From positions 41,469 through 105,468 of the forward strand of contig CAZNAX010000001.1 of the NCBI GenBank assembly GCA_964570965.1: a stretch of DNA of 64,000 nucleotides, given 5' to 3'. Below the pieces are notes generated by a model. The model was not told the DNA's origin and did no database searches. It saw only the letters and a program-made list of their open reading frames with translations. Origin of the DNA: an uncultured Desulfatibacillum sp. GTDB taxonomy: Bacteria; Desulfobacterota; Desulfobacteria; Desulfobacterales; SpSt-501. Of the stretch, positions 9,151 through 52,206 are shown piece by piece (the first letter of the stretch is position 1; each line of letters opens with the position of its first letter). The translations under genes and the position numbers were made by a program.

Positions 9151-9740
9151 TCAATTTTGCATCATTTAGTGACGAGCTGCAGAAGATTGCTGCTGAGCCT
9201 ATTGTGGCTGATCCGATCAATAAAGAAGAACTAGTACGTCACTATCAGCAACTCGGCCGTATAGGTGGTGGAGTGGGTGGTGCTGCTCTTGGTGGTGGCG
9301 GGCTTGGACTACTCGGATCTAGAATTGCTGGAATACCTGGTGCCGTAGTTGGTGGCACAGTTGGTGCACTTGGTGGCGGTTACCTTGGTGGGAAGTACGT
9401 TGGTAGAGCTGCCAAAGGAATAGCTATGGGAACGCCTGAAGATGTATTCCAGGCACGTGCAAATCTTGATCATGCGGAGGACTTGTACGAACGTGGAGAG
9501 TTGGGAGATAAGGATCGTCTGCGAGCCACATTGATCGCGTCCAACGCCGCCAGAAAGGCTCACGGAAGAAAACCTCTAGAGTCTGACTTTCTATCTCGTG
9601 ATCGACCAGGATCTTACGTAGTGGAAGGTAGAGATGTCGCGGTCAATCCTTATGGTATTTCTTACGCAGATCCATATGGATATAGACCGGGACCGGCACA
9701 AGTGACTTCTAGATATCGAAGAGTTCCTATGAGCGAGTAA
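9147..9740 (+). CDS. Glycine-zipper protein
   Basis: 197 aa with ATGA overlap. N-terminus FSDELQKIAAEP, then GGVGGAALGGGGLGLLGSRIAGIPGAVVGGTVGALGGGYLGG. Confidence 0.7.
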   Translation: MINFASFSDELQKIAAEPIVADPINKEELVRHYQQLGRIGGGVGGAALGGGGLGLLGSRIAGIPGAVVGGTVGALGGGYLGGKYVGRAAKGIAMGTPEDVFQARANLDHAEDLYERGELGDKDRLRATLIASNAARKAHGRKPLESDFLSRDRPGSYVVEGRDVAVNPYGISYADPYGYRPGPAQVTSRYRRVPMSE

Positions 9741-10153
9741 TGTACGATCTTGTATCCATAGCTGCCTTCCGCGATGAGATGACCAAACTGGCGCAGGAGT
9801 CTGCTCAGCGCATTGATCCGCAGGCTATTGAGCTGCAACAAGCTCTAGATCAGGAGCAGGGCCGGAGAACGATGAACCGGCAAGCTCTAGGGCAGTTCTT
9901 GAAGGACACTGCTATCGTTGCTGGTGGTGTTGGGGCTGGATATGGGCTAGGTCGGTTGTCAGTGGATGCTCTGACAAAGCTACGAGGGCCAGTATCAAGT
10001 CCATGGCGTCAAATGCTGTATGCAACATTTCCGGTAGTGGCAGGTGGTGCTGCTCTAGCTGTTCGTGGGAAGATGCGAGAAGAGCAAGATCGAAGGCTGG
10101 AAGAAGCATATCAGAGGGGTGTTCAGTCCGCAGGTAGTAGGGTGGGCAGGTGA
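9740..10153 (+). CDS. Small membrane protein (glycine-zipper family)
   Basis: 137 aa with TAATG overlap. N-terminus AAFRDEMTKLAQES. Hydrophobic AIVAGGVGAGYGLG and FPVVAGGAALAV. Confidence 0.65.
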   Translation: MYDLVSIAAFRDEMTKLAQESAQRIDPQAIELQQALDQEQGRRTMNRQALGQFLKDTAIVAGGVGAGYGLGRLSVDALTKLRGPVSSPWRQMLYATFPVVAGGAALAVRGKMREEQDRRLEEAYQRGVQSAGSRVGR

Positions 10154-11000: not shown

Positions 11001-14000
11001 ATGGCACAAGCAATCCCCGAACTTCCGCAGCCTGGTGTGCAGGTCGTCCAGGAGTACACGGATCAGACCCCTGTTATCGTGATCCCGACGCTGGTTCCGT
11101 GCGTGGTCGGGGTAGCGAAGGAGATCCGCGAGCTCTACAACTCGGACGGCACTCTCAACACAGATATCATTGTGGATGGTCCAGCACTTGCTGTGGCCCC
11201 CAACGATCAGACTAGCTACACGGTAATGGACGCGCTCACGCTCCAGCTTCGGGTCAATGGCGGGGTTCTCCAGACCTTTACCATGCCCACTGGTGCTACG
11301 CCGCCAACTACCATGACGGCACAAGAGGTGGCTATCGCCATCAACGGTGCAGCGCCTCCTCCGATCAACTTCGCAGCCTATGTGCTAGCGGAAGACTCGG
11401 ATGGCGATGGTGTGGACGACAAGTGGTACCTCGAGCTCCGCTCCACCGCCACCGGAGAAGACACTTCCATCCAGATCGTTGGTGGGACTGCTATCACCAA
11501 GTTCGGTTGGGGTGAGGGGCAGACCTTCTACGGGCTTGGTGCCTACATCCAAGATAGCGTGTACCTGAAGCAGTCCAGCTTCCCGGATCCCAGAGGCAAC
11601 CTCGATGAGCTGAACATCGATGAGGACTCGATCCGAGTGTTCGTGGACCTCGGTACTGCTCCAAGGGAATTCCTGCGAACAGAGTCGTTCCTTCGGCTGG
11701 GGAGCTACTACAACGTAGTTGGACCAGTGTACGGTGTTACACCAGTTGATGATGGGGATGGAGACACTCTGACCCCGTACGTCGACTTCAAGAGCACTGG
11801 AGCATCGATCCCAAACTTCCAAGCTCTTGCTACTTCAGCCGCACTGACTGGCATTGTCGATCTATCGACATTCCAGCCTCTGCATGGCAAGGAGCTGATC
11901 CTCCAAATTGACGGTGGTGGAAAGCAGACCATCAAGTTCTACGGTCAACCGATCGTGTCCACCGACTCAACGGCTGGTGGTGGTTGGGACTTCACTGCCC
12001 CAGCTGGTGCGATCAATGGGCAGACGTTGAACCTTCTGGTCAACGGTGTGTCGCTTGTTGTGACGTTCGTTGCAGCTGCGTCCATAGCGGATGTCGTAAC
12101 TCAGATCAATGCGGTTTCAGTGGCTACCTTCGGCGTCAACATCGCCTATCGGTGCAATGCCGCTGGTGATTCAGCTCCTGCTGGTGTGTACGTGGGATTG
12201 TTCTATGGCGCCCAACCGGCTGTGAACATCGTCGCCAACACCGAGGTGCAGGTAGCTGCCAACGTTTCTACGGCCCACACCGAGATCATTGGTGATGCTC
12301 TAGCCCATACTCAGTTGCTCGGCAAGAATGCTGGAGCGGAGCCGGTAGATGATGTTGTCGAACAGATCAACAACGTCTACCCATCTGGTGTTGCTTCGTG
12401 GAGCACCAACTTTCTCAAGCTGCAGAGCCTGACCTCTGGGTACGAATCGAAGATCGAGATCGATTCAAACAGCACGTCGCTTGGATCACCGCAACCTACC
12501 CCAACCACCAATCTTGGTATCAATGTTGGTCTCAACGGCTACACCTACCATGGAAATCCGTTCCCAGTTCGTGTAGGGGATGCCATCTACGGTGATGGCG
12601 CCTACCTCGGCAACGTCAGTGAGATTCATCCCATGGCAACTCAGGGACGGATCAAGCTGGATCGAGAAGTAGCTGTTTCTGGAAGGTGGCAGTACTGGTA
12701 CTTCCTCGCTAAGAACCTGGATACCGTACTGAGCAGCCAGTGGGGCGTGACCGTTCCAACTCCGGACATCTACCTGGATACGCAGGGTAATGTGCACCTC
12801 AAGCACGACTTCTTGAGGGACATCTACGGACAACCTGTTTCGACAGCGGTAGTCATGCTCTACGTGATGTATACCGCTGTTCGACTGGATGTCACGGCAG
12901 CCTCTGCAGATCCAGCACTCTTGACGTTCAACAACATCAACGAGCTCGAGGCCGCGATGAGTCCGGTCACTCCGGAGAATCCGCTGGCCTACGGTGTCTT
13001 CTGTGCCCTTGGCAACTCGAATGGTGTGTCGGTCTCCTGCATCGGTGTGAGCGAGACCTTGGCCGACAAACCGTACGGAACGTTGGCAGCATTCCAGGAG
13101 GCGTTTGACTTCCTGCAGAGTTCGGAAGTGTACGGCATCGCCACCCTCACCAGCGATCTCGACATCGCCATGGCGGCTCAGCAGCATGTCAATACTATGA
13201 GCGAGCCGACCATGAAGGGTGAGCGTGTTGCAGTCGTTCACCTAGGCCGGCCGACTCGGAAGGTTGATACCATCGTTGCTTCTGGCAATGATGGTGACAC
13301 GATCGTCGGCACGCCAACCTATCTCGATACTGGCGTTCCGAATCTGTCACAGTTGCTCCTGGATGCTGGTCTCAATCCAGCAACCTTTGGGATCACGGAC
13401 GGTGTATTCCTCGATCTATCGGCTGATAGCTACAACTGGAACGTGATCGGACCGGTAGTTGGCGGTACGAGACTTCGGGTCAACACTATCTTCGCTCCGG
13501 GGCAGAATGACGATGGCTTCTACCACGATACCATTGGAGACTTCCCGACTCTGATCAGTGGTAGCTTCTCGGTGAAGATCAGAGGAGCTGCTGTTGCTTC
13601 CAAGGACGAGGAAGTAGAGACCGTCTATGCGCGAGGTCAGGGATTCAGCGATAGGCGCGTATGGATGATGCAGCTCGATCAGCTCAAAGCGACCATTGAT
13701 GGTATCGAGCAGCTGGTGCCTGGGTTCTACATGAACGCGGCCAAGGTTGGTATGGTTGGTGGGCAGCAGCCCTCTCAGCCCTTCACCAATCTTCCGATCG
13801 CAGTGTTCACCGGAGTCACTGGGACCAATGATAGGTACAACACCACGCAGCTCAATCAGATGGCTGCAGGTGGTGCTGACCTTACTGTGCAAGAGAACAA
13901 GAACGGTCCAATCTGGTCGCGCATGCAGGTCACCACCAAGCTGACGACCATCGAACAACGAGAGCAGTCGATCGTGAGAGCGGTTGACTACTGCGCGAAG

Positions 14001-14243
14001 TTCTACCGAATGAGCCTCAAGGTCTACATCGGTAGATACAACATCACGCAAGGATTCCTCGACACTCTCAGCACAGTGGCCCAAGGCCTGGGGCGATGGC
14101 TAGAGGAAGAGGGAAAAGTAGTGTCGGGTGCAGAGCTGAACAATCTGATCCAGGATGAGAACAATCCTGATACCGTTCTCGTTCAGGTCAGTATTGATCC
14201 ACTATACCCGTGCAACTATATTGTGATCACGATCATTGTCTGA
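11001..14243 (+). CDS. Contractile tail sheath protein candidate (unusually large)
   Basis: 1080 aa with RBS GAGGAG. The C-terminal about 200 aa (REQSIVRAVDYCAKFYRMSLKVYIGRYNITQGFLDTLSTVAQGLGRWLEEEGKVVSGAELNNLIQDENNPDTVLVQVSIDPLYPCNYIVITIIV) follow the pattern I associate with sheath C-terminal domains. A tube-sized gene comes next. Confidence 0.55.
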   Translation: MAQAIPELPQPGVQVVQEYTDQTPVIVIPTLVPCVVGVAKEIRELYNSDGTLNTDIIVDGPALAVAPNDQTSYTVMDALTLQLRVNGGVLQTFTMPTGATPPTTMTAQEVAIAINGAAPPPINFAAYVLAEDSDGDGVDDKWYLELRSTATGEDTSIQIVGGTAITKFGWGEGQTFYGLGAYIQDSVYLKQSSFPDPRGNLDELNIDEDSIRVFVDLGTAPREFLRTESFLRLGSYYNVVGPVYGVTPVDDGDGDTLTPYVDFKSTGASIPNFQALATSAALTGIVDLSTFQPLHGKELILQIDGGGKQTIKFYGQPIVSTDSTAGGGWDFTAPAGAINGQTLNLLVNGVSLVVTFVAAASIADVVTQINAVSVATFGVNIAYRCNAAGDSAPAGVYVGLFYGAQPAVNIVANTEVQVAANVSTAHTEIIGDALAHTQLLGKNAGAEPVDDVVEQINNVYPSGVASWSTNFLKLQSLTSGYESKIEIDSNSTSLGSPQPTPTTNLGINVGLNGYTYHGNPFPVRVGDAIYGDGAYLGNVSEIHPMATQGRIKLDREVAVSGRWQYWYFLAKNLDTVLSSQWGVTVPTPDIYLDTQGNVHLKHDFLRDIYGQPVSTAVVMLYVMYTAVRLDVTAASADPALLTFNNINELEAAMSPVTPENPLAYGVFCALGNSNGVSVSCIGVSETLADKPYGTLAAFQEAFDFLQSSEVYGIATLTSDLDIAMAAQQHVNTMSEPTMKGERVAVVHLGRPTRKVDTIVASGNDGDTIVGTPTYLDTGVPNLSQLLLDAGLNPATFGITDGVFLDLSADSYNWNVIGPVVGGTRLRVNTIFAPGQNDDGFYHDTIGDFPTLISGSFSVKIRGAAVASKDEEVETVYARGQGFSDRRVWMMQLDQLKATIDGIEQLVPGFYMNAAKVGMVGGQQPSQPFTNLPIAVFTGVTGTNDRYNTTQLNQMAAGGADLTVQENKNGPIWSRMQVTTKLTTIEQREQSIVRAVDYCAKFYRMSLKVYIGRYNITQGFLDTLSTVAQGLGRWLEEEGKVVSGAELNNLIQDENNPDTVLVQVSIDPLYPCNYIVITIIV

Positions 14244-24340: not shown

Positions 24341-25275
24341 GCGATCTATGCCACTTCTGCATGGTGAAAGAGGCTACGAGGAAAGTAGATGGCGGGCAGC
24401 TGGGATCGTTGGGCCAGGTCTCTTTCTGCCTCTGTCCCGAGTGTGCAGATGAGAAGTTACTGGCGGACAAGCGGAACAGCAATCTGCTCGAGCTCCAGCA
24501 CAATGATCTGTCTAAGCTGTGTGTAGGATGTGGCATATGCTGTTTCATACTGCACGCAAAAGTAACACACGCAGAAGCGGATCGTATAGTCGAGGAGAAC
24601 AAGATCTGTAAAGATGATTTTGCGATCGAGACGGAGATCGGAAAGTCTCTCTATCCAGACAACTACACGATCAAGACTCCTTGCATGTTTCTTCTGGGAA
24701 GACCACTTGGCGAATGGACTGCGTGTCGCATCCACGGGAAGTTCAGGCCGGAAGTGTGTCGAACGTACATGTGCAAGATCGCCATAAGGTATCAGATCGG
24801 TACTGTCTCTTTAGGTGAGGCGAAGTACGCGTTACGTTCGGCGGTACTGACGAAGGACTTGTCGATCTTCAACTGGTCGAGCAATAGTGATCAGGAAGCA
24901 AAGCTGCTACTCTCGTTCCAGCTTGCGTCAAGAGTTCGTCAGCTGAGAAAGGACAACCTATCGGAAGAAGACATCAAGATGGCCATGGCCTCTTGGGTCA
25001 CTCCTCGCTACACAATCAAGTCAGTGCTGGATGAGCTGGTGCTAGATATGCACCTTGCTACACATGATCGAGGAGATGACGATCCACTTGTCTTCTTCAG
25101 TAAGGAAGAGCTTGCGAATTTGAGGCAGCTAGAGCCATCAGCCGTGATTGGAGAGGTGATCACTAGAGTGTTGGATACGATCAGGGGGTACTTCGTGTGT
25201 GATAAGAGGCATATAGAGGGGATGCCGAAGGTGGATGAAGAGAAGGCAGAGGAGCTGAAAGGATCAAGCAAATGA
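24337..25275 (+). CDS. YkgJ/UPF0153-like CxxCxxCC metal-binding protein (paralog 1)
   Basis: 312 aa. Motifs CVGCGICC, then later PCMFL...ACRIHGKFRPEVCRTYMC, matching the Cys layout I recall for the putative zinc/iron-chelating domain family. Confidence 0.5.
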   Translation: MSDLCHFCMVKEATRKVDGGQLGSLGQVSFCLCPECADEKLLADKRNSNLLELQHNDLSKLCVGCGICCFILHAKVTHAEADRIVEENKICKDDFAIETEIGKSLYPDNYTIKTPCMFLLGRPLGEWTACRIHGKFRPEVCRTYMCKIAIRYQIGTVSLGEAKYALRSAVLTKDLSIFNWSSNSDQEAKLLLSFQLASRVRQLRKDNLSEEDIKMAMASWVTPRYTIKSVLDELVLDMHLATHDRGDDDPLVFFSKEELANLRQLEPSAVIGEVITRVLDTIRGYFVCDKRHIEGMPKVDEEKAEELKGSSK

Positions 25276-35177: not shown

Positions 35178-35759
35178 TTAGCGTGCGATGAAGTGAGGTT
35201 CGCGACAATGGTAGCAGTTCGCTTTTGCCACTGCTGCCGCGATGGCATCGGTGAAACATTTGATTGATTCTGGAAGGGTTTCGTCATAGTACCCCTTCCA
35301 GATCGTTTTTTCCACGATTTCAAGTGTCAAGTCTGGGTGTAGGTGACAGCTGCAGCCAATGATCTGAATCCAGTCTTCACACGCTCTCACTTCCACTACC
35401 ATGATCGTATCGAAGGCAGAAACAGGAACTGAGAAAAGGGCATGTATACCGTTCGATAGGTGTCCACTACGAGGAATGTGATACGGATGAATGGGGAGAC
35501 CATCCGGGTAGCACATCACTGTTGCGTCCCCGGAGTTGGACATACCACCACCGTATTCACGGCAGTTGATGGCGATGCCCATCTTGTAGTCCTTCAATTC
35601 CGGTGGGGATGTGTACACTACACGATAGTCATCCGTATCGTTGTGCTTCGGTAGTTCGACGATCAAACCACCGTGCACGAGCTTAGTGGAAATGCCAGCC
35701 TTAGCCAGCATTTCAGCCAATGCAAGATCTTCCCCAAATACTTTGGCTACGAGATGCAT
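35178..35759 (-). CDS. Hypothetical protein (island gene)
   Basis: 193-aa ORF (MHLVAKVFGEDLALAEMLAKAG...) with its own promoter module. Cys/His-rich C-terminal half (IGCSCHLHPD, NCYHCREPH). Confidence 0.65.
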   Translation of the reverse strand: MHLVAKVFGEDLALAEMLAKAGISTKLVHGGLIVELPKHNDTDDYRVVYTSPPELKDYKMGIAINCREYGGGMSNSGDATVMCYPDGLPIHPYHIPRSGHLSNGIHALFSVPVSAFDTIMVVEVRACEDWIQIIGCSCHLHPDLTLEIVEKTIWKGYYDETLPESIKCFTDAIAAAVAKANCYHCREPHFIAR

Positions 35760-36431: not shown

Positions 36432-36704
36432 TCACTCATTCTTGAATCCTTCTGTAAGGGCAAGTCCACGACGCACGAGCCGATCCAAATAACCCAATGT
36501 TGACGGTGGTACGTTGAGCAGCTCGTTACAAGGAGGACCGCACGATTGCCCTCCCTGGTGAATTCGATAAGCACGGACCTCTTCTAGATCTCGCTTGAGC
36601 ACAACGAACAGGTTCCTGATGACGTGGTGCGTTGCCCGCTCGCATGCCATAGCCCATATTTCTGCTGGAGTTTCCTCACAATCTATACTGTTATTGTTAT
36701 TCAA
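36432..36704 (-). CDS. Hypothetical small protein (island gene)
   Basis: TTG 36704 lies 4 nt after GGAGG, giving 90 aa (NNNNSIDCEETPAEIWAMACERATHHVIRNLF...). The upstream part of ORF 36432..36848 overlaps gene 36697..37035. Start is uncertain. Confidence 0.45.
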   Translation of the reverse strand: MNNNNSIDCEETPAEIWAMACERATHHVIRNLFVVLKRDLEEVRAYRIHQGGQSCGPPCNELLNVPPSTLGYLDRLVRRGLALTEGFKNE

Positions 36705-37035
36705 GTTTCCTCCATGCCCCTTTCTCGGGCTCGGCCTCAAACGATGGCACACCATCCCACGTCGCACCGCAACGACAACATTGACCACCGTTACCATCGG
36801 AGCCTTGCCAGAAGTTAGCTTCGGTCCTGCAAGAAAAACACACGCCATCGATCCAAGTCAGGTCGGTACCTTTTCCAACGTGGTGAATATCGATGACGTC
36901 CTGAAACGTCTCGTACGTTTGGAAGCTTGGATGCTGCCCCAGCCATCGCAGAACGGCTGCACCATCTCGGAATAGCACACCCGCTGCGACGGTATTACCA
37001 TCGCGGATCAGAGAAAATCTCAAGGAATCGGTCAT
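36697..37035 (-). CDS. Hypothetical Cys-rich protein (island gene)
   Basis: 112 aa with RBS AGAGGAGAG. Motifs CFSC...CCRC. Confidence 0.6.
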   Translation of the reverse strand: MTDSLRFSLIRDGNTVAAGVLFRDGAAVLRWLGQHPSFQTYETFQDVIDIHHVGKGTDLTWIDGVCFSCRTEANFWQGSDGNGGQCCRCGATWDGVPSFEAEPEKGAWRKLE

Positions 37036-37515: not shown

Positions 37516-37770
37516 CTAGCGATCTTTCGCATTCGGGGGCGGGCGGAACGTGGCGCTTCCGTGCAGGAAGGCTTGCGTCAGCGGGATGTCGACGAGGGTG
37601 ATGGAGAAGTGATCACCGGTTTCGGTGACATTTCCGAGGCAGGAGGTAGTTACTGCGAAGCCGTCTGGTACTGTTTTGACTTCGAGCAGACCTAGCGACG
37701 GCGTAGCTAGGCAGAAGTTCAGCGCTGCTTCATAGGTCACAAACTTGGCCACGGTTTTTGGTTTCGGCAT
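37516..37770 (-). CDS. Hypothetical small protein (island gene)
   Basis: ATG 37770 follows AAAGGACTGAG, giving 84 aa (MPKPKTVAKFVTYEAALNFCLATP...). The 289-aa ORF-track version runs through a promoter, a terminator and the Csx3-like gene in another frame. Confidence 0.55.
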   Translation of the reverse strand: MPKPKTVAKFVTYEAALNFCLATPSLGLLEVKTVPDGFAVTTSCLGNVTETGDHFSITLVDIPLTQAFLHGSATFRPPPNAKDR

Positions 37771-37819
37771 TGGTCTCAGTCCTTTCTTTTTCGAGGTTAG
37801 ACCTTTCCCGATCGTAATT

Positions 37820-37848
37820 CTTATATACAGACTGTGATCAGTATTTTC
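37820..37848 (-). promoter_or_regulatory. Phage promoter candidate, class GAAAwT-N16/17-kATAAG
   Basis: Minus strand reads GAAAAT (37848-37843), 17 nt, TATAAG (37825-37820). Confidence 0.5.
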
Positions 37849-37856
37849 ACATAACG

Positions 37857-37886
37857 AGCTAAAAGGAGGGCTTTTGAAGACCCTCC
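37857..37886 (-). terminator. Intrinsic terminator after Csx3-like gene
   Basis: GGAGGG (37865-37870) pairs with CCCTCC (37881-37886). On the minus strand it is followed by TTTTAGCT. Confidence 0.6.
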
Positions 37887-37922
37887 GGAGACCTGGAACT
37901 AGGATTCCAGGCTCCAGCTTGC

Positions 37923-38258
37923 TTACAGCGGGTAGCCGTCCGATCCCGCTGTGATCGTATCTCCCACGGCGCGACCGCCGTGAGACGACACTATCACATA
38001 GCTCGTCGTCTTCGGATCGAAGATGGCCACTTCGCAGAAGCGGTGGATCAGATGGTGTGCCAGTATGAACGCAACCGGCAGCGATGCCGGTCCATTCACA
38101 AGGCACAGCGCTCCACCAGGGATCGTGTTGGCGGAGGGAGAGCGCATGAACGCATCCACTTCCGCCACGATCTGGTTGTTCTGTGCTGGTTTGCCGAAGC
38201 CCACGCGAAGCAGGGTCACTCCGCCTTCGGACTCGATCACAATAGAATAGTGTTCCAT
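37923..38258 (-). CDS. csx3: Csx3/Crn3-like cyclic oligoadenylate ring nuclease candidate
   Basis: 111 aa with RBS AAGGAGG 5 nt upstream. LVNGPASLPVAFILAHHLIHRFCEVAIFDPKTTSYVIVSSHGGRAVGDTI aligns block by block with my recollection of A. fulgidus Csx3, ISGRGPIWLHCFLAHKYAHTPFVAVYDPRLGAVVVQSHSELREGDVI. The aligned blocks include the AH..H, (Y/F)DP(R/K) and SH positions. The size matches a single-domain Csx3 of about 104 aa. Confidence 0.6.
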   Translation of the reverse strand: MEHYSIVIESEGGVTLLRVGFGKPAQNNQIVAEVDAFMRSPSANTIPGGALCLVNGPASLPVAFILAHHLIHRFCEVAIFDPKTTSYVIVSSHGGRAVGDTITAGSDGYPL

Positions 38259-38389
38259 TGGAACCTCCTTGATCTGGCACTGCCAGGGAGTTGCCTAGTA
38301 CTTCCCCAGAAAGTGCACCCGTCCCTTGTTTTATGGGTGGGACGTCAACCCGATCAACTAGGAACTTTATGTTCCCATTGATCAATCTT

Positions 38390-38418
38390 CTTATACCCTA
38401 GACGCTCATTGTTCTTTC
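38390..38418 (-). promoter_or_regulatory. Phage promoter candidate upstream of Csx3-like gene (long leader)
   Basis: Minus strand reads GAAAGA (38418-38413), 17 nt, TATAAG (38395-38390). It lies about 130 nt upstream of ATG 38258, against 22-53 nt for the other copies. Confidence 0.45.
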
Positions 38419-38504
38419 AATCTGACAGAGAAAAATGCTGCTGTAGAGAGTCCTAGATCTGGTTATAAGCATGGTGGAAGGGAAATCCTTTAGAGAGTGA
38501 GGAG

Positions 38505-50273: not shown

Positions 50274-50458
50274 TAGACAGTCTCCACGATAAAATGCATC
50301 TTAGATTTCAGAAGCAGCCGTTGCTCTTCTTTGGACAGCGCAAGCCACACAACTCTCATTTGAGTTTGTACCCTACTAACTTCGTGTACCGCTCCATTGG
50401 CCTCGCTCTCAAGCATCAACTTTTCCAAATGGACATAGTTTTGTAGCGTTGGACTCAT
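50273..50458 (-). CDS. Hypothetical small protein
   Basis: 61 aa. Both ends overlap neighbouring genes by 1-4 nt, suggesting translational coupling. Confidence 0.5.
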   Translation of the reverse strand: MSPTLQNYVHLEKLMLESEANGAVHEVSRVQTQMRVVWLALSKEEQRLLLKSKMHFIVETV

Positions 50459-52206
50459 ACAGTCTCCTGAACGTCAGCGATGGTCAGAGTCCCCAACGTA
50501 TTCTGTCCAGCAAGTGTTACGTCATTCAGCCAGACCGTCGTTGGGTTGGTGCCAATCGAGTCCACAGTCAGCGTATCCACGATGTCCGCATGATCCCCCT
50601 GAACAGCGTTCCGAAGCCCGGTGTGGTTGTTCAACGAAAGCACGCCAAACGTGAGCTTGGTGTACGTGACCACTGGAACGTTCATCGTGGTGGACTGTGA
50701 GAACGCTGCGAAGGTCAACGTTCGAGCTACGAATCCACCGATCGTGTATGCAGCACTTGCTGGCGCAATGGTAGTGGTCACCTTTCCGGCTCTGTTCGTG
50801 ACTGAGAAAGCTCCCCAGTTGTGAGACGCATGGACATCGTTGTCGTGGACGGAGAGACTTCGTGTCCAAGAAGATGGTCCACCAGTCCATGATCCAAGCC
50901 ATGTACCGCCATTTACGTCTGTGGCAAGAGACGGTGCTGCGTACGCTGGCTGATCAAGTGCGATAGTGATCGTGTGAGACTGTGCGGAAGTTCCATTGTT
51001 GCCACCAGATCGAAGTCTAGCTGCTGGAAGAGTGATCGTGGCGGCAGAGATGGCAACGTGGGCAATAGCAGCGTAGCTGTCCACAGTGGTCTGAGAGCCA
51101 TTGGCCTCTCTGCTCAAGACCATTCTGAAGTTGACTCCGCTAAACCTAGTATCTCCTGCGATCCTGGTAACAACCTTGGCAGCCTCGAAGGTGCTTGGGT
51201 TGGCGATGCTGAGTTCGGCTGGAGCACTTGGGCTCGTGAAGGCTACCGTATCGTAGTTGGATGCTGTGAGGTTGAACGTAGCGCTCTCTGCATCCTTCAG
51301 AGCGGATTGCCCTGCCGGGTAGTTGATGGAAGCAACCGATCCAGACGGATAGCGGTTGTTGAGAGCGACAAGATCGTGTCCGTCAACAGAACCACCAAGC
51401 TCGTTCGTTGCTCTGACATTACCGAAGGCACCGGCAGCGTTGTGCACCTTCATCTTGGCTGCGAGGTTCTGTAGGGTCGTTCCTCTATCAGCGATGGTGA
51501 TCGAAACGGTTCCAGAAGTGGCTGGGGCAAACGCGAAGGTCTGTAGAGTCCCTGCCCCGTCGTTGAGCACGGTGGCTCCAGTGCAGGGAAGATCAGAAAC
51601 AAAGTGGAGGTCGAAGGTGTCTCCCGCTTTGAGCTCCGTTTGGGGCGTACCAGGAAGCCACGGGACATCCGGATAACCTCCAGTGAAGTAAAGATCCAGA
51701 AGTTGAGGAGGCAGTTCGATTGCAACAGCAACGTCATCTCTTGCGCTTGCGAGTCCTTCTGGCGTCAGTACAACGATCCCAATTGTCTCTCCAGCAGGAT
51801 CAATAACAACATCCACCGTGCCAGAGTAGTGCCCCTCGTCCAACGAAGGAGTCAAGGTCTCGTTGACCGTTCCAGCCAACGTGATGACTCTAACTTCGGG
51901 ATACGAGGAGTTGATCGTAAGCCTGACATCTACGGTAGAACAAGTGAACGATTGCAACACTGTGTTGTCGGGAGGATTCTGGTAGACCTGGTCGCTGACC
52001 ATACCACCAGTAGGTGATGCTGCGTCGGTCAGATAGATAAAGCCTTGGCCTGATTCACTGATCTTGCTATCAATGTATGTTTCGAGGGATGTAAAGGCGC
52101 CATCGATGTCTCTGCGAAGGTCCATTATCTCGGCAGCCAGACCTCCTGACTTGCGAACCAGGTGTGGTCTGAGCGGATGTGAGCCGCCAAAGGATCTGCT
52201 TCCCAT
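50455..52206 (-). CDS. Tail fibre candidate
   Basis: 583 aa. After an N-terminal helical segment (AAEIMDLRRDIDGAFTSLETYIDSKI) comes Thr/Ser/Gly/Ala/Val-rich beta sequence typical of fibre shafts. It is the first gene of the minus-strand cluster. Confidence 0.5.
   Translation of the reverse strand: MGSRSFGGSHPLRPHLVRKSGGLAAEIMDLRRDIDGAFTSLETYIDSKISESGQGFIYLTDAASPTGGMVSDQVYQNPPDNTVLQSFTCSTVDVRLTINSSYPEVRVITLAGTVNETLTPSLDEGHYSGTVDVVIDPAGETIGIVVLTPEGLASARDDVAVAIELPPQLLDLYFTGGYPDVPWLPGTPQTELKAGDTFDLHFVSDLPCTGATVLNDGAGTLQTFAFAPATSGTVSITIADRGTTLQNLAAKMKVHNAAGAFGNVRATNELGGSVDGHDLVALNNRYPSGSVASINYPAGQSALKDAESATFNLTASNYDTVAFTSPSAPAELSIANPSTFEAAKVVTRIAGDTRFSGVNFRMVLSREANGSQTTVDSYAAIAHVAISAATITLPAARLRSGGNNGTSAQSHTITIALDQPAYAAPSLATDVNGGTWLGSWTGGPSSWTRSLSVHDNDVHASHNWGAFSVTNRAGKVTTTIAPASAAYTIGGFVARTLTFAAFSQSTTMNVPVVTYTKLTFGVLSLNNHTGLRNAVQGDHADIVDTLTVDSIGTNPTTVWLNDVTLAGQNTLGTLTIADVQETV

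Follow-up and report, generated by a model that had tools for sequence, protein, structure and literature searches.

A csx3-like gene and its signals

The stretch of DNA analysed here (64 000 nt of contig CAZNAX010000001.1, positions 41 469 to 105 468; referred to below as the window) carries a short open reading frame (ORF) that an earlier reading of the letters alone, called here the original prediction, took for a phage-encoded homolog of Csx3. Csx3/Crn3 is a cellular ring nuclease acting on the cyclic oligoadenylate (cOA) signal of type III CRISPR systems (PMC7371418). We found the ORF to be a genuine phage gene; its product, as modelled, has the Csx3 fold, and a function against cOA signalling is likely. 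Used for comparison are a sister phage (L001/L002) and a more distant relative, L101. The gene and its accompanying signals are as follows.

37923..38258, minus strand: csx3/crn3-like gene of 111 aa, with ATG start and the stop codon included in the coordinates; protein motifs N55-G-P-A-S-L-P61, H68-x3-H72, D81-P-K83, S92-H93 and G99-D100
38264..38270, minus strand: strong Shine–Dalgarno sequence AAGGAGG, 5 nt before the csx3 ATG, read directly from the sequence; the same in L001 and L101
37861..37886, minus strand: terminator-like hairpin GGAGGGTCTTCAAAAGCCCTCC followed by TTTT, 36 nt past the csx3 stop codon, found by a terminator scan
38259..38504, minus strand: divergent intergenic region with the csx3 leader, 246 bp, unusually conserved

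The csx3-like ORF is a real phage gene maintained by selection. Independent gene callers annotated the identical 111-aa gene on four loci matching the window exactly, and its ortholog P0001 (91% identical) on eight contigs from metagenomes. In comparison with L001 (91% amino acid identity; 19.7 synonymous and 11.3 non-synonymous differences) the ratio of non-synonymous to synonymous substitution rates (dN/dS) was 0.175. The gene is syntenic in L001 as well as in L101, a phage whose helicase is 69% identical to that of the window and whose GC content is 47% (52% in the window). The gene also looks expressed. We discarded three overlapping candidates as frame artefacts: a 289-aa same-strand ORF (37516..38385) and two antisense ORFs (37980..38381 and 38023..38250). 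Gene callers choose the 111-aa gene and an 84-aa gene in their place, and the apparent conservation of the three merely mirrors that of csx3.

The region upstream of csx3 is 95.6% identical to that of L001, versus 89.9% for the csx3 coding sequence and 63% for the next gene. Long invariant blocks of the leader, each of at most ∼25 nt within a 60-nt conserved stretch, persist in the distant L101; the conserved block (GGGTTGACGTCCCACC..AACAAGGGACGGGTGCACTTTCT) includes a GTCCC/GGGAC hairpin. A promoter-like pair, TTGAAA-N19-TATAAG, is possible in 38259..38504. A search of the conserved leader against Rfam returned sub-threshold noise only and no family. The leader may be a phage-specific promoter/operator or, alternatively, a structured 5′ untranslated region. 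The original prediction had placed csx3 in a transcription unit of its own. The divergent upstream region agrees with that, as does the terminator, whose GGAGG/CCTCC stem and T-run are kept in L001 despite an altered loop; however, a sigma-70 promoter scan upstream of csx3 found no consensus site.

The Csx3 fold and the active site

Aligned by HMMER with Archaeoglobus fulgidus Csx3 (AfCsx3; PDB 6VJG and 3WZI), the product of 37923–38258 showed the blocks that the original prediction had listed, VTLLRVGF/FTLIHFEI, GP, AH..H, VA.(F/Y)DP(K/R), SH and GD.I, in the same order. PF09620 (Cas_csx3) was the best and sole meaningful Pfam match of the protein, over its C-terminal half only (20.3 bits, E 5e-4). 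Close homologs matched this family in 10 cases out of 10 (best E 2.7e-7), and a precomputed PF09620 match was present on most of the 120 listed relatives. The top PDB match was AfCsx3, at E 0.065 for the single sequence (HMMER); a profile of 87 family sequences matched five AfCsx3 entries at E ∼1e-4, with nothing else significant.

An AlphaFold2 monomer model built on the family alignment had a predicted local distance difference test score (pLDDT) of 95.1 and a predicted template-modelling score (pTM) of 0.86. With this model as query, the top 12 Foldseek matches in the PDB were all AfCsx3/Crn3 (3WZG, 3WZH, 3WZI and 6YUD, the last bound to cyclic tetra-adenylate, cA4), with probability 1.00, E 2e-6 to 8e-5, template-modelling scores of 0.65–0.71 by query length and 0.71–0.80 by target, and root-mean-square deviations of 2.3–3.2 Å. 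The matches that came next were the CARF domain of Cat1 and STAS anti-sigma antagonists; CARF and STAS folds are known neighbours of the Csx3 fold (PMC12409355).

By sequence alone the identification is borderline; we consider it settled because family consistency, predicted structure and functional residues all point to Csx3. The modelled protein has the Csx3 fold and homology is thereby confirmed, as far as a predicted structure can do so; the structural comparison proposed with the original prediction came out in its favour, and neither it nor the proposed search with Csx3 models gave the negative result named there as a refutation. Within the family, the protein belongs to a divergent sub-clade with the signature NGPASLP...H-x3-H...DPK...SH and is not an equivalog of characterised Crn3.

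Conservation of residues was assessed over 95 clade sequences. The following positions are invariant in 95/95.

AfCsx3 H57, phage H68
AfCsx3 H60/61, phage H72
AfCsx3 D69, phage D81
AfCsx3 P70, phage P82
AfCsx3 H80, phage H93
AfCsx3 G45, phage G56

In AfCsx3, D69 and H80 are reported to be essential or important residues in the cleavage of cA4 (Athukoralage et al. 2020, PMC7371418). The original prediction had matched an Asp and the His of the SH motif to these two residues, and phage D81 and H93 do align with them. The spacing of the histidine pair is fixed across the clade as H-x3-H, versus H-x2-H in AfCsx3. The cA4-contact loop of AfCsx3, S44-G45-R46...I49, is not preserved in the phage clade, which has the motif NGPASLP; I49 aligns with phage L60.

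Relatives in cellular genomes

A profile search of a collection of 5.8 billion proteins yielded 1761 relatives of the phage protein, falling into 361 clusters at 50% identity, and a motif-based scan in which each GTDB species was represented by one genome found clade members in 243 species genomes. At the 80 best genome loci we recorded the genes adjoining csx3 as well as CRISPR arrays within 10 kb. A P-loop nucleoside triphosphatase (NTPase) of ∼195 aa (GPPRSGKS...PDGEG...VDIGG) adjoins csx3 at 62/80 loci; an array is present at 15/80. The two proteins are also fused in both orders, NTPase-Csx3 (P0160 and P0163) and Csx3-Csx3-NTPase (P0123), and these three fusion proteins carry the motifs of the phage sub-clade (NGPASLP and DPK). 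The NTPase itself had no significant family in a Pfam search. The fusions correspond to AAA-Csx3 and Csx3-AAA, described by Shah et al. 2018 (PMC6546367) as type III accessory families (clusters 35 and 67); these authors proposed that cOA regulates the ATPase by way of Csx3.

Tandem Csx3 domains in one polypeptide were seen as well: P0121 (238 aa) has two domains, and proteins of 430–452 aa have two Csx3 domains and an NTPase. Such proteins may hard-wire the head-to-tail stacking of dimers seen in AfCsx3 crystals.

In Poribacteria, Chlorobiaceae and cyanobacteria the clade sits in type III CRISPR loci. At the Poribacteria locus L048, csx3 immediately precedes the genes for Cmr1, Cas10/Cmr2, Cmr3, a CARF protein and Cmr4, with arrays on the flanks; at the Chlorobiaceae locus L071 it follows RT-Cas1 and a CRISPR array of 50 repeats. 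Here csx3 also occurs solo, as the NTPase was found at 0/5 Chlorobiaceae and 0/3 Poribacteria loci. Cyanobacterial members are 42–47% identical to the phage protein.

The closest cellular relatives, at 53–61% identity, are held by Patescibacteria, the candidate phyla radiation (CPR), a lineage regarded as almost free of CRISPR. The neighbours of csx3 in these genomes are housekeeping genes, and the NTPase is present at 16/20 loci. The NTPase gene (∼195 aa) followed by csx3 makes a conserved two-gene module there (L013–L027 and others; e.g. 9259–9852 and 10001–10342 of L017), and the NTPase (GPPRSGKS) is 64–77% identical in most of the varied Patescibacteria sampled. A literature search on type III CRISPR or Cas10 in Patescibacteria found no papers. 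Given a widespread and strongly conserved NTPase-Csx3 operon without adjacent arrays, one may ask which signal the module responds to in CRISPR-poor Patescibacteria.

The phage and the distribution of csx3 among viruses

The window is part of a large myovirus-like phage genome, which confirms the phage origin assumed in the original prediction. Over positions 25178–45759 it matches a 174 060-bp metagenomic contig (L103; JGI 3300009009 Ga0105105_10000002) at 100% identity, and five or more further samples contain near-identical copies. Among the products of the window are a major head protein (phrog_2522), a tail sheath (phrog_15433, E 9e-87), a second sheath-domain protein, Laminin_G tail-fibre-like proteins and a DinG-type helicase. 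No match to phages was found by megablast of 20 kb of the window, and a tRNA scan of the window found none. The best matches of the phage proteins, in PhiPA3-like phages, 180-kb Vibrio/Salmonella phages and Bacillus/Listeria phages, are 24–35% identical; the phage has no close cultured relative.

The two tail-sheath-domain proteins of the window are encoded at 50455–52206 (minus strand) and 11001–14243 (plus strand). One is 31–35% identical to the sheaths of PhiPA3/phiKZ-like jumbo phages; the other, of 1080 aa, matches with its C-terminal half structural proteins of Vibrio phages D69 and D181 and Salmonella phage Arash. A 618-aa protein of the window had no phage match. The ancestry of the phage is mosaic. 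Prompted by the first of these sheaths, we considered a nucleus-forming (phiKZ-like) jumbo phage but rejected the idea as unsupported, since the matches of the capsid, second sheath-like protein and helicase lie in unrelated groups of phages and the 618-aa protein has none; no evidence of a phage nucleus was found within the window.

Clade members were present on seven IMG/VR contigs, at 39–53% identity to the phage protein; the phage represented by the 174-kb contig was not itself retrieved by the motif scan of IMG/VR. Phage genes lie near csx3 on four of the seven (L006, L008, L011 and L012), among them a portal (E 4e-98), a primase with an endolysin, and tail-fibre/tail-spike matches. In L007 and L010 the PHROGs search found no hallmark genes (one PHROG of unknown function and weak radical-SAM matches), and the viral status of these two rests on IMG/VR alone. 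L007 and L010 (136–155 kb) are almost entirely made of ORFans and are syntenic around csx3, with proteins of ∼920 and ∼300 aa and, in L010, a radical-SAM-like gene; they may represent a separate lineage of large phages. 

The IMG/VR contigs with csx3 have nothing else in common with the window, and viral csx3 genes occupy at least three positions in an unbootstrapped neighbour-joining tree of this short protein. Such scattered positions, on contigs otherwise unlike the window, suggest that phages acquired csx3 repeatedly. The partner gene did not accompany any viral copy: the NTPase was absent from 9/9 viral csx3 loci (tblastn), and no homolog was found in the 64-kb window, either among its 616 ORF frames (phmmer) or by tblastn.

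Outside these contigs the phage protein had no family in a PHROGs v4 scan, no match by tblastn in 50 697 GenBank phage records and nothing at E≤1e-3 in a Foldseek search of the BFVD viral structures. Crn3/Csx3 was not reported from two dedicated screens of ∼28 000 phage genomes either. In one, hidden Markov models of Crn1-3, Csx15, Csx16 and Csx20 were run against 28 114 phage genomes (Hoikkala et al. 2025); the viral matches were AcrIII-1 in 36 genomes, Csx20 in four and Csx16 in two, with no Crn3 reported. Later reports add AcrIII-2/vSAVED and Crn4b as viral ring nucleases. The original prediction treated AcrIII-1 as the sole characterised viral ring nuclease, which these reports of AcrIII-2/vSAVED, Crn4b, Csx16 and Csx20 contradict.

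The accessory island and its Acb5-like gene

The csx3 gene heads a minus-strand cluster running from 38258 down to 35178 between plus-strand blocks. Its other genes include the following.

37516..37770, minus strand: 84-aa ORFan, the next gene after csx3; called in L001, L002 and L102, homolog in L101
37100..37426, minus strand: 108-aa Cys-rich, zinc-ribbon-like ORFan, no Pfam or PHROG match
36697..37035, minus strand: 112-aa Acb5-family homolog (Pfam PF26761), three genes downstream of csx3
35178..35759, minus strand: 193-aa ORFan at the far end of the cluster, tblastn homolog in Patescibacteria

The 112-aa gene is a homolog of the Acb5 family by sequence and a predicted alarm-signal nuclease. 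A precomputed PF26761 match (E≤1e-5) is present on the identical protein in L102 and L105, and phrog_7499 matches at E 1.8e-6; an older Pfam release gave no match. Acb5 is a validated phage family that cleaves 3′3′-cyclic GMP–AMP (3′3′-cGAMP) and defeats the cyclic-oligonucleotide-based anti-phage signalling system (CBASS), and 66 of its 96 INPHARED matches are in Streptomyces phages (bioRxiv 10.1101/2025.07.12.664507); the catalytic residues of Acb5A are R10, W38 and H61. The GenBank phage homologs of the 112-aa gene (tblastn) were confined to 16 Streptomyces phages and one Gordonia phage.

The original prediction that csx3 lies in an accessory island held up: genes on the same strand form a cluster, an Acb5-family homolog is among them, and past the first two genes the content differs between the window and the sister phage L001/L002. 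Such variability fits an accessory region of the anti-defence type. The 84-aa ORFan is the sole other island gene kept beside csx3 in L001, L002 and L101; it evolves fast (63% nucleotide identity to L001), and could be a functional companion of csx3 or another anti-defence gene. L001/L002 lack the 108-aa ORFan; the gene that follows there is another one, at least 279 aa long. A search of ten neighbouring genes with the older Pfam release found no families, all being ORFans; the ORFans of 84, 108, 80 and 193 aa are good candidates for new anti-defence genes. The presence of an Acb5 homolog beside csx3 suggests an island devoted to the destruction of nucleotide immune signals.

The 193-aa ORFan has six relatives only in the collection of 5.8 billion proteins. 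A 32%-identical homolog lies in a 1-Mb Patescibacteria genome (L013, 15054–15614; tblastn E 1e-17), ∼5 kb from an NTPase-Csx3 module; this similarity hints weakly, as a second sign, that genes have been exchanged with Patescibacteria.

Proposed function of the phage protein

We think it probable that the phage uses a partner-less protein of the Csx3/Crn3 fold against the cOA immune signalling of its host, the protein binding and cleaving cA4 or a related cOA. Several observations argue for this: the fold, the residues of two protein faces, a clade linked to type III loci, the phage origin, purifying selection, recurrence in phages and the Acb5-like neighbour. M. mazei Csx3 expressed alone lowers cA4/Csx1 immunity in vivo (PMC7371418), which shows that inhibition by a solo Csx3 is possible.

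The chemistry of AfCsx3 is Mn-dependent, and its active site is shared between stacked dimers (PMC7371418). By analogy, dimers of the phage protein would stack head-to-tail with cA4, or a cOA close to it, between them, with the catalytic set distributed over two faces: the histidine pair H68/H72 on one, D81 and the basic K83 on the other, and H93 in a ‘pinning’ role. The bound molecule would be cleaved in a metal-dependent reaction. With the second messenger made by Cas10 removed, CARF and SAVED effectors would never be activated, which would amount to an AcrIII-like mechanism. We infer in this scheme the substrate, the catalysis and the oligomeric mechanism, and likewise the timing of expression and cOA signalling in the host. 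Because the cellular relatives are normally coupled to an NTPase and all phage copies come without it, the phage version is read here as a stripped-down module that would degrade the signal constitutively.

A number of points weigh against this proposal. (i) Regarding family membership, the protein narrowly misses the Pfam gathering score (20.3 versus 21 bits) and falls far below the cutoff of the NCBIfam equivalog model TIGR02579 (17.6 versus 55.4 bits); a search with Csx3 models, put forward with the original prediction as a check, was thus favourable as to the best Pfam family (PF09620, E 5e-4, matched by all 10 close homologs) but left the protein 0.7 bits under one threshold and well short of the other. 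(ii) As to residues, AfCsx3 R71, described as absolutely conserved and strongly impaired when mutated to alanine (R71A; PMC7371418), is replaced by K83 in 95/95 clade members; the cA4-contact residues R46 and S44 are replaced by P57 (93/95) and N55 (95/95). K83 would keep the charge of R71; still, with these three equivalents altered, ligand specificity or rate may differ from AfCsx3. There is also a one-residue gap ambiguity in the alignment of H72, which is paired with H60 by phmmer and with H61 by hmmsearch and MAFFT. (iii) As to biology, no CRISPR array was present within 10 kb of csx3 at 20/20 sampled Patescibacteria loci, cOA production by the host of the phage is a matter of inference, and a literature search found no biochemical study of Csx3-AAA or of any member of the phage's clade.

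What else could the protein do? It could be a mimic or decoy of host Csx3, co-assembling with it or binding the NTPase and so disabling or hijacking an NTPase-Csx3 sensor/effector. The genomic picture is suggestive: the NTPase is adjacent at 62/80 cellular loci and fused in both orders (P0160, P0163, P0123), the module occurs at 16/20 Patescibacteria loci with no nearby array at any, and the nine viral loci all have csx3 without it. Regulation of the ATPase by cOA via Csx3 has been proposed (Shah et al. 2018, PMC6546367), and an active site shared between stacked dimers makes mixed assemblies conceivable (PMC7371418). Nevertheless, a physical interaction with host Csx3 or NTPase is conjecture, a decoy would not need full conservation of catalytic residues, and solo copies in type III loci without the NTPase (Chlorobiaceae 0/5, Poribacteria 0/3) indicate that the domain works alone. 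We regard a decoy as unlikely.

One could speculate further that the phage infects a Patescibacteria host, where its solo Csx3 counters the NTPase-Csx3 module, the latter being a CRISPR-independent defence or regulatory system that senses cyclic oligonucleotides; this too has a small chance in our estimate. We would give similarly low credence to its wider form, in which phages defeat this module, and type III signalling elsewhere, with a sensor/nuclease domain stripped of its ATPase. Should this hold, viruses would have a new family of ring nucleases and CPR bacteria a new signalling system.

The substitutions described above (R71K, R46P and S44N, at cleavage and contact positions) could also be taken as a sign that the protein is a cOA sponge or a very slow ring nuclease, which mainly sequesters cA4 or another cOA in head-to-tail filaments instead of turning it over, as reported for Csx15; inactive AfCsx3 H60A does make fibres with cA4 (PMC7371418). 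Yet all catalytic histidines and the aspartate are invariant in the 95 sequences, which would be surprising in a protein that only binds; moreover, sponging has been argued in print to be a poor strategy against the large cOA amounts of type III systems, and no Csx15 was observed in phages. A sponge therefore seems to us a doubtful alternative.

An altered ligand-contact site is also compatible with another substrate: cA3, cA6, S-adenosylmethionine–AMP (SAM-AMP)-type molecules, CBASS trinucleotides or RNA 3′ ends. AfCsx3 can bind an RNA tetranucleotide, and the original report on it presented an Mn-dependent deadenylating exoribonuclease (PMC7371418); the separate homolog of a cGAMP-type nuclease in the phage suggests that different proteins deal with different signals. 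Crn3 activity, wherever characterised, is cA4-specific, however, and the clade is linked to type III-B loci, with a CARF-type neighbour also in L048, which makes a different substrate improbable. Finally, the nearest cellular relatives lie in housekeeping neighbourhoods of Patescibacteria and another island gene has a Patescibacteria homolog, but that csx3 is a host-derived passenger without an anti-defence role, e.g. a housekeeping Csx3 of Patescibacteria type, is very improbable in view of purifying selection (dN/dS 0.175), a conserved position and a highly conserved leader across three diverged phages, separate gains of the gene in several phage lineages and the neighbouring Acb5 homolog.

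Comparison with known systems

If the favoured anti-cOA function is true, phage Crn3 adds a viral ring-nuclease family with distinct chemistry, metal-dependent and with a site shared between stacked dimers. The ring nucleases that viruses carry reveal the immune signals phages have to silence. To specialists a phage Csx3 would be unsurprising in principle; its deployment by phages free of the NTPase, with a fixed and distinct ligand-contact signature, is unreported in GenBank phages, PHROGs, BFVD or the literature searched.

The nearest characterised protein is AfCsx3 (A. fulgidus AF_1864; PDB 3WZG, 3WZI, 6VJG and 6YUD). The phage protein resembles it in fold (root-mean-square deviation ∼2.3 Å over ∼100 residues), in being a single domain of ∼100–110 aa, and in order and spacing of motifs. 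It differs in that it is encoded by a phage rather than in a type III locus, is only 22–24% identical, and belongs to a clade with lysine for R71, proline for R46, asparagine for S44 and the H-x3-H spacing. Closer in sequence are the Csx3-AAA and AAA-Csx3 proteins (clusters 35 and 67, e.g. CYB_0599 and Caur_2269), which are of the same sub-clade (NGPASLP and DPK); unlike them, the phage protein has no NTPase domain (GPPxxGKS...DGEG...DxGG), either fused or adjacent, and would offer a natural ‘minimal’ version of the Csx3-AAA clade for biochemistry.

Among other counter-defence and signal-binding proteins, Acb5 relates to the neighbouring gene at 36697–37035, which has the Pfam Acb5 domain and the same bias to actinophages, and is unrelated to Csx3 in structure and sequence. 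The head-to-tail stacking of AcrIII-2 and Csx15 around cA4 is the assembly to be expected for the Csx3 fold, and in AcrIII-2, too, a virus carries its copy of a sensor domain known from cells; these two, though, are built on SAVED and CARF domains, respectively, versus the Csx3/STAS-like fold of the phage protein. In its proposed role, that of a small stand-alone viral enzyme destroying cA4, the phage protein is like AcrIII-1 (viral Crn2, DUF1874). The folds of the two are unrelated: the phage protein had no Pfam match to DUF1874 at E≤10, and no DUF1874 structure was among its significant Foldseek matches (E≤0.001). Their chemistry differs too, as AcrIII-1 is metal-independent with an active site inside one dimer, whereas Csx3 is Mn-dependent and has its site between stacked dimers (PMC7371418).

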